Source of the DNA: Promethearchaeota archaeon
GTDB lineage: Archaea > Asgardarchaeota > Lokiarchaeia > Sigyniarchaeales > SOKP01
Assembly (NCBI GenBank): GCA_008080735.1
Contig: SHMW01000098.1
Coordinates: forward strand, 1 to 13,718
Reading direction: 5' to 3'
Length of the DNA stretch: 13,718 nt
The position numbers and the translations under genes were made by a program. Shown here piece by piece: positions 1,147-13,622 of this stretch. Within the stretch, counting starts at the first letter, position 1; each line of letters opens with the position of its first letter. A model generated the notes under the pieces. That model was not told where the DNA came from. It did not search any database and saw only the letters and a program-made list of their open reading frames with translations.

Positions 1147-2193
1147 TTGAAAATATTATATGGAATAAACACGATTGGCTCGGGTCATATAAATCGCAGT
1201 AGTGTGGTTATTTCCCAATTACAAAAAGATGGTCATCATGTTGATTGCATTTTTAGTGGACCGAATCCACCTAAATATGCGTTAAAAATAGCGAACCGCT
1301 ATACTCAAGTTCATGGCTATCGAATGAAATTTAATGGCCAAAATCCCGATCCAATTATGACTTTTTGGGAAAATTTCAAAAAAGCACGCTCTATTTTAAA
1401 ATCCTTATTCAAATCTTTCCGAATCAGCCTAAGCCAAGATTATGATGCGATAATAAGCGATTTTGAATTATCCACTTGTTTAGCTGGATTTTTTCTGCGA
1501 AAACCTGTTATCATTGTCGATCACCAACATTCATTGATTCACCCCGGCGCATTACGAGCCCCGGGTAAGTTTTCCGATATCTTCAATGCTCTAATCGCGA
1601 TGGGGATGTCGAATCCATATTTTAAACATATCTTCGCATTAGATTTAGTAAACCAACCAATTCGAAGGTTCAAAGAAACCTTATTTCCATTGATTTGGAA
1701 GCCTGAAATGATAGACTTATCAGTTTCTGTTGAGGATCATTATTGTGTCTATCTTCCTTATATTCCAATAAATAAGATATGTAAAGTTTTTTCCGAATTT
1801 CCCGAGACAACCTTCCATGTATATGGGTTTGATATGGACAAAACTCATAGAAACATACATTTTAAACCAACTTCAAGATACGGTTTTTTAGAAGATATGG
1901 CAAGTAGTAAGGGTGTTATATCCCACACAGGATTTTCAATAACATGGGAGATTATGCTCCTTAAAAAACCTTTCTATACTATTCCTCTAGAACACCACTA
2001 TGAGCAGCAGACAAACGCCTATAGACTATCAAAAAAGAATTTAGCTTTTGTTGGAGATGATCTGTCAATTTATTATCTGAAAAGATTTATTGATCAATGT
2101 GAACAAGATAGTTTTCTAAATAAGGGCGATATTAGGATCTTAGAACCAAATACCTTGACCAAATGTATCTATAAAGAAATCGCAAAAGCATAA
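1147..2193 (+). CDS. GT-B glycosyltransferase, MJ1255/VC2487-like family
   Basis: N-terminal MKILYGINTIGSGHINRS, central IISDFE and IIVDHQH, and C-terminal ISHTGFSITWE...KPFYTIP...HYEQQTNA match the pattern of this family. TTG start. Confidence 0.85.
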   Translation: MKILYGINTIGSGHINRSSVVISQLQKDGHHVDCIFSGPNPPKYALKIANRYTQVHGYRMKFNGQNPDPIMTFWENFKKARSILKSLFKSFRISLSQDYDAIISDFELSTCLAGFFLRKPVIIVDHQHSLIHPGALRAPGKFSDIFNALIAMGMSNPYFKHIFALDLVNQPIRRFKETLFPLIWKPEMIDLSVSVEDHYCVYLPYIPINKICKVFSEFPETTFHVYGFDMDKTHRNIHFKPTSRYGFLEDMASSKGVISHTGFSITWEIMLLKKPFYTIPLEHHYEQQTNAYRLSKKNLAFVGDDLSIYYLKRFIDQCEQDSFLNKGDIRILEPNTLTKCIYKEIAKA

Positions 2194-7077: not shown

Positions 7078-7779
7078 TTATTCATAATCATAAGTAATAT
7101 CTTCTTTATTTAGTGGATGTACTACGACTCTCAAATTTCCAAAGCGAGGGTTAAAATTTTGGATTACATTAGAAATCTTATTAAAAATCTTGAATGGATT
7201 ATCTTCATCATAGCCTTGAATCCAAATAATAACTTCATTACCATCTGGCGAATTTCCTATTTCGATTCCATCAAGTAATAACGATTCAGGCTTAATTAGT
7301 TCCATTTTTTCGCGTTCTTTTTCAAGTATCAGCTCTAACTTCTCTGCTAATTGGTTTAATACATCTTCCATATCATCATCAAATTCCCGCCCCCCCATCA
7401 TCCAAATAATAGTAATTAATCTTCGACTTACTCCAAATTTCTCCTCTTCCGCTTCGAGTTCAGCAGCTGCCTGATCCAACTTCATTTTATATGTTTCGAC
7501 TGCCTCTTCATATTCCGATTCAGATATAGTAATAAATACATTAGAATTGGTATTTGATGAATTTGATAATGAATAATATAGATGGGAGTATTCTTCTACG
7601 CGTCCCTCAGAAATAAGCTTTTCTAAAGCATTGTTGATCTCGGGGAGAGACACTAAGATACGCAATCGAAGATCTATCCATCCAATGAGATTGTTCAAAC
7701 TCATTGATTCGGACAATCCATTCATCTTAAGAGCCCATAAAATTGCTTTTTCTATTTGATTTTTATCTACCATTTCCAT
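7078..7779 (-). CDS. Acidic hypothetical protein (~233 aa); start probably ATG at 7779 rather than 7932
   Basis: The first 51 codons of the 284-aa ORF lie in the AT-rich divergent promoter region and overlap the putative pgk promoter. From MEMVDKNQIEK onward the sequence looks like a globular protein. Confidence 0.7.
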   Translation of the reverse strand: MEMVDKNQIEKAILWALKMNGLSESMSLNNLIGWIDLRLRILVSLPEINNALEKLISEGRVEEYSHLYYSLSNSSNTNSNVFITISESEYEEAVETYKMKLDQAAAELEAEEEKFGVSRRLITIIWMMGGREFDDDMEDVLNQLAEKLELILEKEREKMELIKPESLLLDGIEIGNSPDGNEVIIWIQGYDEDNPFKIFNKISNVIQNFNPRFGNLRVVVHPLNKEDITYDYE

Positions 7780-7917
7780 AGTAAAGTTATTTTTAATGAT
7801 TGATAAGAAATAAGGGGTTTGAAGATATATTAAGATTGCTAAGTGATATAAATCATATCCTACAAAGAATATGATTGTTTTTAATGCAAAATTCATAAAT
7901 TTAGATATCCTACATAA

Positions 7918-7930
7918 GAAAAGTTTATTC
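7918..7930 (+). promoter_or_regulatory. Putative BRE/TATA promoter of pgk
   Basis: GAAAAG-TTTATTC about 50-60 nt upstream of ATG 7980. It has the same GAAAAG-TT architecture as the motif at 1114. Confidence 0.4.
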
Positions 7931-7979
7931 ATATGCTTAAATTATTTTACCATAATAAAATCTAAAGAGTTGAAGTTTA

Positions 7980-9495: not shown

Positions 9496-10908
9496 TTGTC
9501 TCCTAATCTACCTCATAAAATAATAAATTACAAAACTCCTTTGATTGAAACTAATATTCTATTAGTTATATTAAGTTGGAAGAATTGTATCAAATTGCCG
9601 ATTTCGGGTAGTTATCAACATCATTCGATAGAGAACATAAAAACCGACATTGTTATTTTCTTCGGTGGGAAAGAATGTTCTATCTCTACAGTTAACGGAT
9701 ATCTGCATTCTCTATTTGGGTTAGGGTATTATTACACCAAATTTGAAATACAATCTCAAAATTACATAACAGACAATCGTGAATTAACAGGTTTAGTGTT
9801 ATCTGATTTTGTCTATGATCATCTGTCAACTTCAAATAGTGTAGCGTTCCAAGAGGATGCCGATGTAATTTTTACAGACCTAGTTGTGAAAGTTCCTCTT
9901 AATCTTTCTTACAAATCAGACACTAAAAGAACTTTTATAAAGGGAACACTTATGAGAAATCTCTTCATACCCTATAAAGATATTTTTCTTGAAATGATGA
10001 ATCATATTAGAAAACCTGATACCTATCAAATCAAAAAAGATGGACCTATGATTCTTAATGCGGATTGGAATATTTTTAACACAATTTTAATCTCAAAGAG
10101 AATGCAGGAACGTAAAAAAAAGGAATTTATCAATCCGACTGCGGGTATCACTCAAATAGAAGTGGGAGTTGAGGAATATTTACAAAAGATTTTTTCTCCT
10201 TCAGAAATCTTAGAAATAGAGGAAAAGGTTGAAGATTTGAAAAAAATATTCGCTTCTATCGAATTAGATCCAACCTATCTATTCTCACTGATAGAAAATT
10301 CCTCTAAATATTTACCAATACCTCCAATAAACTCTGAAGAGTATCAAAAATCTTCTCCTTATAAAAAGTCAATTCTTATTTCAGCGGGAACTCGGTTAAA
10401 CGAATATAAAGCATGGCCTCTCAAACTAGAAGCTCATACTGAAAAGGGTTCTACTTCAAAAGTTAAAGTAAAATTTGAAGATAAGAATAAATTTAATTTT
10501 CAAATAGAAGAAGATTCAAACCAAAATAGTAATATGGAGAGTTATTCAACACCAAAAAAGGGAGATTTTATCTTAAGGAGTATGAGACCAAATATTGTAA
10601 AAGAGAAAAAGCTTCCCGAATCTTCTATGAATACGATTGATGAGATCTTAGATTATCTTATAAAGGTCATAAATGAGGATTATGATATGCCAACTATAGG
10701 TCGAGCTTTTGAAAATGCTCATCAAAAATTGCGGAAGATTGTTTTATATGTCGATTATATGTGGGAAATGAGCAAGTTAACAAATATTTACAAAAAAAAG
10801 AATCCGAACTTGGGCTTAAGTGAAAAAGAAAAAGAAAACTTGCTCCGTAAGGTATATGATTGGAAATCAAAAACTAAAAATAGTCAAATTAAAGTAGGAC
10901 CAAAATAA
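9496..10908 (+). CDS. Hypothetical soluble multidomain protein (N-terminal alpha/beta domain, low-complexity linker, C-terminal helical domain); true start may be TTG at 9595
   Basis: 470-codon ORF with no recognisable family motif. It has a globular region to ~aa 272, an S/K/E/N-rich linker, and an amphipathic helical region at ~aa 375-460 ending in EKENLLRKVYDWKSK. Confidence 0.8.
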   Translation: MSPNLPHKIINYKTPLIETNILLVILSWKNCIKLPISGSYQHHSIENIKTDIVIFFGGKECSISTVNGYLHSLFGLGYYYTKFEIQSQNYITDNRELTGLVLSDFVYDHLSTSNSVAFQEDADVIFTDLVVKVPLNLSYKSDTKRTFIKGTLMRNLFIPYKDIFLEMMNHIRKPDTYQIKKDGPMILNADWNIFNTILISKRMQERKKKEFINPTAGITQIEVGVEEYLQKIFSPSEILEIEEKVEDLKKIFASIELDPTYLFSLIENSSKYLPIPPINSEEYQKSSPYKKSILISAGTRLNEYKAWPLKLEAHTEKGSTSKVKVKFEDKNKFNFQIEEDSNQNSNMESYSTPKKGDFILRSMRPNIVKEKKLPESSMNTIDEILDYLIKVINEDYDMPTIGRAFENAHQKLRKIVLYVDYMWEMSKLTNIYKKKNPNLGLSEKEKENLLRKVYDWKSKTKNSQIKVGPK

Positions 10909-10929: not shown

Positions 10930-11625
10930 ATGGCAAGTATAAAATCTGCGATTAAATATCTCGAGAAAGCATTTCCAGATGTAATGGAAACAGCAGTATT
11001 TAACAAAGAGGGGAATATTTTGTACTCAAGTAATAATTGGAGCATCGAGAATGAGGTTAGGGCTCTTTTATCGGTTTGGTGGAGTGAGAATGCTCAATTT
11101 ATTAATATAAATGGTGTTAGATATTCAATTCTTCAGATGGAACCCGAGCGTTTCGTCGCAACAAATCGGAAAAAACAAGGCCATCTGGTCGGAGCAGCGA
11201 CTCCCAGTATGAATAAATTCCTTATAGCACATATTAGTCCGAAATCAAAAGGGTGGTTTCATGGGGCTTATCCTACTATAGCACGAGCAGCGGCTATGAT
11301 AGAAACGGGGTTGGAAATAAATATAGAAAAGGGAAATAAGCAGAAACTTTCCAGGCAGAAAAAAGATGTAAGAGATAAAATCTTTGAGGAGGATTATTTT
11401 GCTTCATTCATAGAATCCGCAAATAATCCAAGCACCTCTTTAGTCCAACAGAGATCGGAAATAGATCCTAACTTAGAAATTGAAGTTGAAACATTTTTGG
11501 AGTGGATTAAAGATCCCGAAGGTTTAGCTGGTTTCATAAAATATTATCTTAGGGAAAATGATTCTGAGATGATATCTCGTTTATCAAGAATATACCAACA
11601 ATTTTACAAAACATTTTATGGGTAA
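10930..11625 (+). CDS. Asgard-type profilin domain protein with a ~105-aa C-terminal extension
   Basis: aa 1-125 follow the Asgard profilin pattern as I recall it: AVFNKEGNILYSSNNWSI...W...ININGVRYSILQMEPERFVATNRKKQGHLVGA...LIAHISP plus a terminal helix. A basic linker and a helical domain (aa 178-231) follow. Confidence 0.82.
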   Translation: MASIKSAIKYLEKAFPDVMETAVFNKEGNILYSSNNWSIENEVRALLSVWWSENAQFININGVRYSILQMEPERFVATNRKKQGHLVGAATPSMNKFLIAHISPKSKGWFHGAYPTIARAAAMIETGLEINIEKGNKQKLSRQKKDVRDKIFEEDYFASFIESANNPSTSLVQQRSEIDPNLEIEVETFLEWIKDPEGLAGFIKYYLRENDSEMISRLSRIYQQFYKTFYG

Positions 11626-12007: not shown

Positions 12008-12112
12008 GGGCTCGTGATCTAGCGGTATTAGTAATTAGTGTTGCTTCTTGCTGCCTAAGATGCCCGCTTGACGTGCGGGAAATCGAGGGTTCAATTCCCT
12101 CCGAGCCCACCA
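12008..12112 (+). tRNA. tRNA-Val(GAC) with a ~30-nt intron in the D-arm and genomically encoded CCA
   Basis: Acceptor stem GGGCTCG/CGAGCCC followed by ACCA. Anticodon stem CCCGC/GCGGG with loop TTGACGT (GAC at 12070-12072). T-arm GAGGG-TTCAATT-CCCTC. The D-arm ATCT-AGCGGTAT...GAT is interrupted by 30 extra nt. Confidence 0.93.
12029..12058 (+). other. tRNA intron at non-canonical position ~22/23 (relaxed bulge-helix-bulge)
   Basis: Inner helix AGTAA(12030-34)/TTGCT(12048-52), 3-nt bulge ATT(12027-29), central helix GGT/GCC with one C-T mismatch, and second bulge AAG(12057-59). Cutting after the 2nd nt of each bulge gives a normal 75-nt tRNA with ...GGTATGATG... Confidence 0.75.
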
Positions 12113-12767: not shown

Positions 12768-13622
12768 ATGAAAGTTGAGATTCGTTGCCCTATTTGTTCT
12801 ACTACAGAAAACATCGAGATTTCTAAGAATGAATTAGAAAAGATTCAAAGAGGTCTATTAGCGATTAACATTCCAAAGTCTGTTGTATGTGAACACAATT
12901 TTGTGGCATATATTGATAGTAACTTTCATGTAAGGAATTATTGTACTACAGATTTTGAAATTTTAGTCCCTGAAGATCAATCAGAGATTCAAACGCCAGA
13001 CATTCCAATTAATAAAATGGATCCACTCTTATTAAAGATTAATTTACCTCCCTCCATTTTATCATATATTTTAAGAGGTATCTTTTCTAAACATAAAATT
13101 ATTATTATTTCAGATAAAGAATTTCTGATTCCACATTTAACCCATTTTTTTAAATATATAATGGAAAATTCATTTGAAATGGATTTGTCAATTATTTTGG
13201 AACAAGATTATATTAATTCTTCTAAAAATTATGAGGAGGCTCTTATCTTCTACGGAAATAAGATCATCACTAACGAATCTTCTGACAAAATTTTAGGAGA
13301 TATCAGCATTGAAGAGGCTATTGTTGAGAAATTTTTATCTGAAAAAGACTTGCAAACAGGTTTGATCATATTAAAAAATGAGATTAAGAAAGCCCATCAC
13401 ATCTCGGAAATTCTCATTGACATTATTAAAGACTCCGAGACAAAGAAAAAGAAAATGAATCCTGAAGAGGCTATTAGAATGCTCGAGGAAGGGCATAACA
13501 TCAAGATATCCTCCGAATACCTCGAATTCTTATACATCATCATAGAAAATTACTTTGGGATTGAAGTACCAAAGAAAATAAAAAAAGTTTTTCAATTATA
13601 CTTGGGAATTTCCTACTTTTGA
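12768..13622 (+). CDS. Hypothetical protein with an N-terminal Zn-ribbon (CxxC...CxH) and a possible DENN-like core
   Basis: C7-P-I-C10 and C41-E-H43-NFVAYID, a central LLKINLPPSILSYILRGIFSKHKIIIISD segment, and a helical C-terminus. Confidence 0.8.
   Translation: MKVEIRCPICSTTENIEISKNELEKIQRGLLAINIPKSVVCEHNFVAYIDSNFHVRNYCTTDFEILVPEDQSEIQTPDIPINKMDPLLLKINLPPSILSYILRGIFSKHKIIIISDKEFLIPHLTHFFKYIMENSFEMDLSIILEQDYINSSKNYEEALIFYGNKIITNESSDKILGDISIEEAIVEKFLSEKDLQTGLIILKNEIKKAHHISEILIDIIKDSETKKKKMNPEEAIRMLEEGHNIKISSEYLEFLYIIIENYFGIEVPKKIKKVFQLYLGISYF

Follow-up and report, generated by a model that had tools for sequence, protein, structure and literature searches.

An order-restricted C-terminal domain on an Asgard profilin, predicted to form three helices and to dimerise

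The archaeal DNA analysed here (13,718 nucleotides, hereafter the window) contains an open reading frame, P0001, that raises two questions: is the encoded protein a profilin, and what might be the use of the helical domain that follows the profilin-like part? A previous sequence-only reading of the window had described the protein as a modular profilin, with a series of Asgard profilin motifs at the N-terminus, a Lys/Arg-rich linker and a compact helical domain at the C-terminus. The reading frame and the quoted profilin motifs are real and are all found in the 231-residue translation: GNILYSSNNWSI, GVRYSILQMEPERFVATN and GHLVGA all lie within aa 28-89, the Lys/Arg-rich string EKGNKQKLSRQKKDVRDK corresponds to aa 132-149, and the helical stretch of 54 aa corresponds to aa 178-231. 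The coordinates of the gene, of its three parts and of the other loci referred to below are collected in Table 1, where CTD denotes the C-terminal domain.

Table 1 Features of the window and of other loci carrying or flanking CTD genes.
Feature	Sequence	Position	Strand	Remarks
Upstream gene	window	9496..10908	+	470 aa from TTG start, true start uncertain; no Pfam match
Profilin-linker-CTD gene (P0001)	window	10930..11625	+	complete, uninterrupted ORF; ATG start; 231 aa
Profilin domain, aa 1-126	window	10930..11307	+	PDB sequence matches, AF2 model, Foldseek
Linker, aa 127-177	window	11308..11460	+	predicted disordered, variable; Lys/Arg-rich patch aa 132-149
CTD, aa 178-231	window	11461..11622	+	three predicted helices, conserved, no known family
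tRNA-like element	window	12008-12112	+	in 500-nt AT-rich spacer after the profilin gene; Rfam tRNA-clan match below threshold (E 9.7e-8, 23.9 bits)
Open reading frame, 284 aa	window	12768-13622	+	no Pfam match; begins with CxxC...CxH zinc-ribbon-like motif
Open reading frame, 284 aa	window	7078-7932	-	no Pfam match
205-aa profilin-CTD paralogue	L002 (contig C35 of the window genome)	1486-2103	+	same architecture as P0001
Free 53-aa CTD	L010 (contig C26 of the window genome)	1486-1647	+	about 20084-20245 of the contig
Arf/Ras-type GTPase gene	L006	5147-5656	-	divergently adjacent to a profilin-CTD gene
Second Arf/RagA-like gene	L006	2948-3892	-	about 2 kb further

The profilin domain and its C-terminal extension

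For the N-terminal domain the closest matches are solved Asgard profilins. A phmmer search against PDB sequences gave the Odin profilin 5ZZA_P (E 2.3e-12 over aa 17-120), followed by 7PBH_A (2.9e-7) and the Loki profilins 5ZZB_A (2.3e-5) and 5YED_A (3.4e-5). The Pfam Profilin model (PF00235) scored 14.6 bits with the full-length protein and 16.4 bits with aa 1-130 and did not reach its gathering cut-off of 25, and the relative P0074 was also below the cut-off (20.3 bits). Because of the direct matches to solved Asgard profilins, we ascribe the sub-threshold scores to a limitation of the Pfam model rather than taking them to exclude the protein from the profilin family.

An AF2 model of the full-length protein, built on 26 homologues, shows aa 1-126 with a pLDDT of about 90 as a helix (4-14), seven strands and a second helix (109-126). 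Among the seven strands is the profilin-type three-strand insert which, replacing half of the central helix, separates profilin from Roadblock and longin (PMC10933270). When the model was compared with the PDB using Foldseek, the Odin profilin 5zza_P came first (TM 0.89, normalised to target; E 2.7e-11), then the Loki profilins (TM 0.78-0.80) and then eukaryotic profilins. The 50 best matches listed were all profilins; among them was no Roadblock-, longin- or GAF-like fold, in which a five-strand sheet goes with an intact central helix. Since the fold matches are all profilins and the three-strand insert is present, the alternative fold of that kind, which the earlier reading had named, fails, and the N-terminal domain is a genuine Asgard-type profilin. 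Gelsolins and an actin of the Lokiactin type (444 bits against Pfam Actin) are encoded in the genome of the window; from this, from homology and from the conserved strand block we infer that the window copy probably binds actin.

A word-indexed search returned 51 homologues of 209-301 aa (41-86% identity, nearly all covering 97-100% of the query), all from Loki/Promethearchaeota-type assemblies. An alignment of 26 homologues keeps the three-part layout, with conservation in the profilin part and over the final ~54 aa; conservation is higher in the CTD than in the linker. Seven CTD residues are invariant (E185, W192, G198, D211, I215, L218 and Y222) and six further positions are nearly so. The linker varies across homologues from 28 to 120 aa in length and from -5 to +18 in net charge, and in the window protein the AF2 pLDDT falls below 50 for aa 133-175. 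It is clear that the Lys/Arg-rich linker, correctly noted for the window protein, is not a trait of the family, since it is confined to the subclade of the window protein (P0001-P0007) and two long-linker relatives, whereas most homologues have net acidic linkers with charges of -2 to -5. The suggestion that the extension may target the membrane through its basic linker is without support, because the Lys/Arg patch is not conserved.

A compact helical domain at the C-terminus is borne out by a confident model. The full-length AF2 model (pTM 0.56) places CTD helices at 180-194, 199-208 and 212-230 with pLDDT values of 83-93 over aa 180-230, and the CTD modelled alone reaches a pLDDT of 90.4. 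A separate fold search of aa 178-231 gave no match to a solved fold: Foldseek against the PDB returned none below E 8.9, a VIA wide search reached a best Z of 5.3 with generic helical chains only, and in the ESM Atlas the domain found its own Promethearchaeota clusters, followed by HTH-like small helical models at TM ~0.5. The sequence searches agreed. Pfam gave no family for aa 131-231 and only scattered matches (E > 0.008) for 26 CTDs scanned singly, and the sole match of a CTD profile to PDB sequences was 3JQH, a biased repeat with no stretch passing. The villin headpiece was considered as a counterpart; here Foldseek gave no match below E 8.9, VIA wide only generic helical chains (Z ≤ 5.3) and the PDB profile nothing meaningful. 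As modelled, the CTD is a small domain of three helices that folds independently and belongs to no known family. The term modular profilin is thus right, because the matches of the N-terminal domain are to profilins rather than to Roadblock, longin or GAF folds, and because the extension is kept in the 51 full-length homologues and in 148 of the 153 genomes of the order.

Distribution, paralogues and genomic neighbourhood

We searched 400 genomes of the phylum with the CTD profile. Positive genomes were found in all four families of the order: 132/134 in f1, the family of the window genome, 1/1 in f2, 12/14 in f3 and 3/4 in f4. This amounts to 148/153 genomes in the order versus 0/~247 elsewhere in the phylum (0/7 in other orders of the class and 0/~240 in other classes). 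A positive genome usually has 1-3 matches and at most 4. The CTD arose within a single order, to which Promethearchaeum syntrophicum, Lokiarchaeum ossiferum and the window genome belong.

The window genome (4.1 Mb in 140 contigs, 93% complete) carries three CTD genes, namely the window gene, the 205-aa paralogue, which is ~34% identical over its full length, and the free 53-aa CTD-only reading frame. It also encodes a short profilin of 124 aa on contig C1. The 205-aa paralogue is flanked by a gene for a zinc-ribbon protein and by an N-acetyl-gamma-glutamyl-phosphate reductase-like gene. Free CTD reading frames of 50-54 aa occur in four genomes from three families: the window genome, P. syntrophicum (L029), Ca. 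Harpocratesius (L030) and one further genome (L031). The free CTD is a conserved micro-protein and may escape annotation.

Three closed genomes of the order, all of family f3, carry CTD profilins, and all of these are annotated as hypothetical protein: UYP46361.1 (NEF87_002646, 207 aa) in L. ossiferum, QEE14768.1 (DSAG12_00584, 208 aa) in P. syntrophicum and a 214-aa protein in Ca. Harpocratesius repetitus. In a maximum-likelihood tree, taken from a quick search only and with an unreliable root, the 205-aa paralogue groups with the proteins of L. ossiferum, P. syntrophicum and Harpocratesius in a clade apart from the window-type proteins (SH-aLRT 99). The window gene seems to have arisen by duplication of an older profilin-CTD gene at the level of the family, since the window-type loci that we fetched are all from family f1 and the three closed f3 genomes have no window-type copy.

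The L. ossiferum protein UYP46361.1 is listed as the profilin B35_Pro1 in a motility study of that organism (bioRxiv 10.1101/2025.11.30.690169; Nature 2026, PMC13716822). In the tables accessible to us, and by our reading of their unlabelled columns, it has a mass of 22.8 kDa and five peptides and occurs both in the total proteome and in the Lokiactin co-immunoprecipitation (bioRxiv 10.1101/2025.11.30.690169). Reading the unlabelled columns of these tables as mean log2 intensities gives ~19.5 for B35_Pro1 versus ~17.4 for the short profilin B35_Pro2, and the CTD-bearing profilin is apparently the more abundant of the two. Read in the same way, the unlabelled columns for the Lokiactin co-immunoprecipitation give log2 fold changes of ~0.3 (p ~0.17) for B35_Pro1 and 1.07 (p ~0.002) for B35_Pro2 (bioRxiv 10.1101/2025.11.30.690169). 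The accessible text of the published version agrees with the B35_Pro1 values in reporting the detection of a second profilin below significance (PMC13716822). It follows from this listing and detection that the family has already been recognised as profilin and that the protein is made; the CTD itself is not described in the accessible text on B35_Pro1.

The start codon of the window gene lies 21 nt past the stop codon of a co-directional upstream gene. In 5 of 12 related loci a homologue of the upstream protein (37-40% identity) is encoded directly 5' of the profilin gene and in the same orientation, and a gene pair is weakly suggested. Conservation of the upstream protein covers aa ~140-460. 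Its Pro-rich motif YLPIPPINS was considered as a profilin ligand and rejected, as it is not conserved in three homologues; the Atlas model of the protein is poor (pLDDT 0.37) and gave no usable fold match. The remaining genes of the window encode two glycosyltransferases, a LarB/AIRC-like protein, a GH20 hexosaminidase and phosphoglycerate kinase, none of them cytoskeletal, besides the two 284-aa proteins in Table 1. No neighbours are shared with the group of 49% identity: on the 186-kb contig of L006, which carries a 49%-identical profilin-CTD gene, the flanking genes of 293 and 457 aa are unrelated to those of the window. The arrangement in L006, with an Arf/Ras-type GTPase gene next to the profilin-CTD gene and an Arf/RagA-like gene beyond it, does not occur in the window. 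ARAGORN found no tRNA in the window; the element at 12008-12112 is consistent with a tRNA gene split by a non-canonical intron.

Architectures that carry the CTD

An exhaustive search with the CTD profile through 1.84 billion cluster representatives yielded 53 proteins, and most of the full-length matches among these have the order profilin-linker-CTD. Several short matches, P0080, P0084 and P0100 among them, represent only the C-terminal end of a profilin-CTD protein. In P0070, P0073 and P0083 the CTD follows a Ras/Roc-type small GTPase (Pfam Ras, E 5e-11 to 2e-34), from which spacers of Pro-rich and zinc-ribbon type separate it, and in P0088 it stands between a small GTPase and a gelsolin domain, the gelsolin segment being close to the head of a GelX-type gelsolin of the window genome. 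P0069 has the CTD first, followed by a polyproline stretch and a profilin; P0098 has it after leucine-rich repeats (LRRs), and P0076 and P0102 have it after other unknown regions. One match was discarded. P0053, the top profile match with 6164 aa and 36 matching stretches, is spurious: a cadherin-like repeat meets only profile positions 28-49 through 'NSND.PIISQLSD'.

Short metagenome contigs are the source of the GTPase and gelsolin fusions. The two that were traced, P0083 and P0088, are both on ~2-kb contigs of one sample (fusion genes at L033:730-2019 and L034:296-1462, + strand in each case); one fusion additionally includes a gelsolin domain and a stub of a truncated profilin, and after the other comes a second small-GTPase gene. 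We considered whether P0088 could be read as GTPase-CTD-gelsolin-profilin and rejected this, as there is a true stop after a profilin-like stub of 20 residues and no continuation in another frame. In species genomes nearly all of the CTD matches listed, about half of all matches, are in open frames of ~200-250 aa, and because of this the GTPase and gelsolin fusions look uncommon among species genomes.

Taken together, profilin-linker-CTD is near-universal in the order, and the CTD occurs additionally on GTPases, on a gelsolin domain, on LRRs and free. Modularity is therefore wider than the sequence-only reading could tell. Judging by these matches the CTD behaves as a module that is portable between architectures, and it is most simply seen as an interaction module, since its sequence is kept while the partners change and since it exists alone.

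Possible roles of the CTD and comparison with known systems

Oligomerisation, partner docking and membrane targeting had been put forward as roles for the extension. The first of these finds computational support in a two-copy fold test of the CTD, run with the 26-row alignment, in which the CTD scored 0.43 versus 0.01 for the best of three controls. Three runs gave 0.43, 0.44 and 0.24; the score only just reaches the mark of 0.42. This mark is attained by 20/30 proteins solved as same-chain pairs and by 1/23 solved as single chains, counts that are only a rough guide here because our own alignment was used. Contact agreement was at least 92% and partner pLDDT at least 73. In the predicted interface of ~97 contacts helix 1 packs against helices 2 and 3 of the partner copy, giving an intertwined dimer; the interface takes in about two thirds of all residues, and its overlap with conserved positions is therefore no independent support. 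Small helical domains are also easily over-predicted as dimers. Partner docking fits the mobility of the CTD between architectures.

We put a probability of roughly 0.55 on the reading that pairing of CTDs makes profilin bivalent or couples it to other CTD proteins. In such a pair the helices of the two CTDs would intertwine, and the dimer would carry two flexibly tethered profilin heads. The CTD could also pair with that of a paralogous profilin or with the free 50-aa mini-CTD, and in some lineages with a GTPase- or gelsolin-bearing CTD protein, and would thereby link profilin to those partners. The outcome would be a bivalent or recruitable carrier of profilin-actin in a lineage whose characterised profilins lack polyproline binding. 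Dimerisation and every downstream consequence are what we infer. A bolder version, which we hold only tentatively and think rather unlikely, is that the CTD constitutes an order-specific code of homo- and heterodimerisation that couples profilin-actin to Ras-type GTPases, gelsolin and LRR proteins, with the free mini-CTD as a competitive regulator. If true, such a code would be an archaeal, non-polyproline way of recruiting profilin-actin to signalling sites, and a link from GTPases to actin that predates or parallels the logic of the eukaryotic formins and Ena/VASP.

A different reading, possible although we would bet against it, is that the CTD docks to a common partner without a CTD, such as the side of Lokiactin filaments, a membrane or a scaffold protein, in the manner of the villin headpiece or of domain X in 1DGelX, for which side binding is proposed. 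Profilin, GTPases, gelsolin and the mini-CTD would then be brought to, or would compete for, the same site. It agrees with this that the identifiable fusion partners (profilin, gelsolin, Ras-type GTPase and LRR) are all cytoskeleton or signalling domains, and the free mini-CTD would suit a competitor or an adaptor. Precedent exists in 1DGelX, an Asgard actin regulator with a C-terminal accessory domain (PMC7444086), and according to the accessible text of the L. ossiferum study an ARF GTPase and gelsolins co-purify with Lokiactin (PMC13716822). The CTD, however, showed no likeness in fold or sequence to the villin headpiece or to a known actin-binding module in these searches (best VIA Z 5.3), its profile does not match the C-terminal domains of the GelX-type proteins of the window genome, and in the co-immunoprecipitation tables mentioned above B35_Pro1 is not significantly enriched with Lokiactin.

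Less probable still is that the CTD binds the profilin domain, either in cis as an autoinhibitory lid or in trans as a lineage-specific ligand that replaces polyproline when carried on a GTPase or mini-CTD. Most CTDs are indeed attached to a profilin through a flexible linker, a different means of recruitment is plausible for Loki and Odin profilins as they lack polyproline binding (PMC8410842), and the extensions of the Heimdall and Thor profilins modulate ligand binding (PMC8410842). Against this, the full-length model (pTM 0.56) with its disordered linker gives no confident packing between the domains, and a CTD on an LRR protein without profilin requires the trans version. Both docking and binding to the profilin head are compatible with dimerisation, and neither excludes it. 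That the extension is an artefact of read-through, mis-assembly or gene-call fusion, or a non-functional tail, has a negligible chance: the tail is not recognised by Pfam, but the same architecture in 148/153 genomes of the order, three closed ones included, rules out an artefact, the invariant and nearly invariant CTD positions persist at 41-86% overall identity, the CTD is modelled with a pLDDT of 90, the window genome has a paralogue and a free copy, and the accessible proteome tables of L. ossiferum contain the 22.8-kDa form.

The reading we prefer, pairing of CTDs, would matter for the regulation of actin in these archaea. The CTD is near-universal in the order to which all three closed genomes examined belong, and most copies are on profilins. 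If it pairs profilins or docks them to GTPase or gelsolin proteins, a layer of Lokiactin regulation would have been missed by truncated or single-domain constructs. To our knowledge the biochemistry to date has been done on single-domain profilins. Such a layer, if real, would answer how profilin-actin is recruited in a lineage without polyproline-binding profilins. Since the CTD is small, confidently folded in the models and present in cultivated strains, the question is directly testable, and the domain offers an experimental handle on the wiring of the actin regulators of L. ossiferum and P. syntrophicum.

Published work on Asgard profilins covers those of Loki, Odin, Heimdall and Thor, with no polyproline binding by the Loki and Odin profilins (PMC8410842). 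In the literature searched, some subscription papers being outside our reach, we found no description of a C-terminal domain on Asgard profilins, of its restriction to one order, of its free form or of its fusions. What is new here is an undescribed, order-restricted and portable domain on a bona fide Asgard profilin, predicted to form three helices and to dimerise.

Closest in architecture are B35_Pro1 and QEE14768.1, which share the profilin-linker-CTD order with the window protein but belong to the other paralogue group and are only ~27-31% identical to it. Among solved structures, the Odin profilin 5ZZA, crystallised with rabbit actin, and the Loki profilins 1 and 2 (5YED/5YEE, 5ZZB) have the same fold (TM 0.78-0.89, E 2e-12 to 3e-5), and the strand block RYSILQ..PER..TN..GHLVGA of the window protein aligns with the equivalent Odin strands. 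These solved chains, however, have 121-136 residues and match only aa ~17-120, leaving the linker and the CTD unmatched; the window protein thus has ~105 residues, a disordered linker and a predicted three-helix domain, beyond the solved Odin and Loki profilins.

The same design logic is seen in the Thor/Loki 1DGelX proteins, with a gelsolin domain, a linker and a helical domain X (PMC7444086), which are the nearest analogue. Domain X is not the CTD, as the GelX-type proteins of the window genome end in a different domain: the CTD profile finds three loci only in that genome, none of them in the gelsolin genes on contigs C19, C1, C88 and C21. In three of these GelX-type proteins (L037, L038 and L039, on C19, C1 and C88) a single gelsolin domain is joined through a long linker of low complexity to a conserved C-terminal domain, in one or two copies, which contains the motif 'LIVG..LYGAISK...FGE' and is unrelated to the CTD. 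'ProGel', considered as a precedent for a profilin-gelsolin fusion, was set aside since the name stands for 'prototypical gelsolin'.

The Heimdall and Thor profilins (6YRR, 7PBH) are likewise Asgard profilins with an appended segment that tunes their activity (PMC8410842). Their extension is N-terminal, ~20 aa long and disordered, and is thought to have arisen independently (PMC8410842), whereas that of the window protein is C-terminal, folded according to its model, strongly conserved and common to other protein families.
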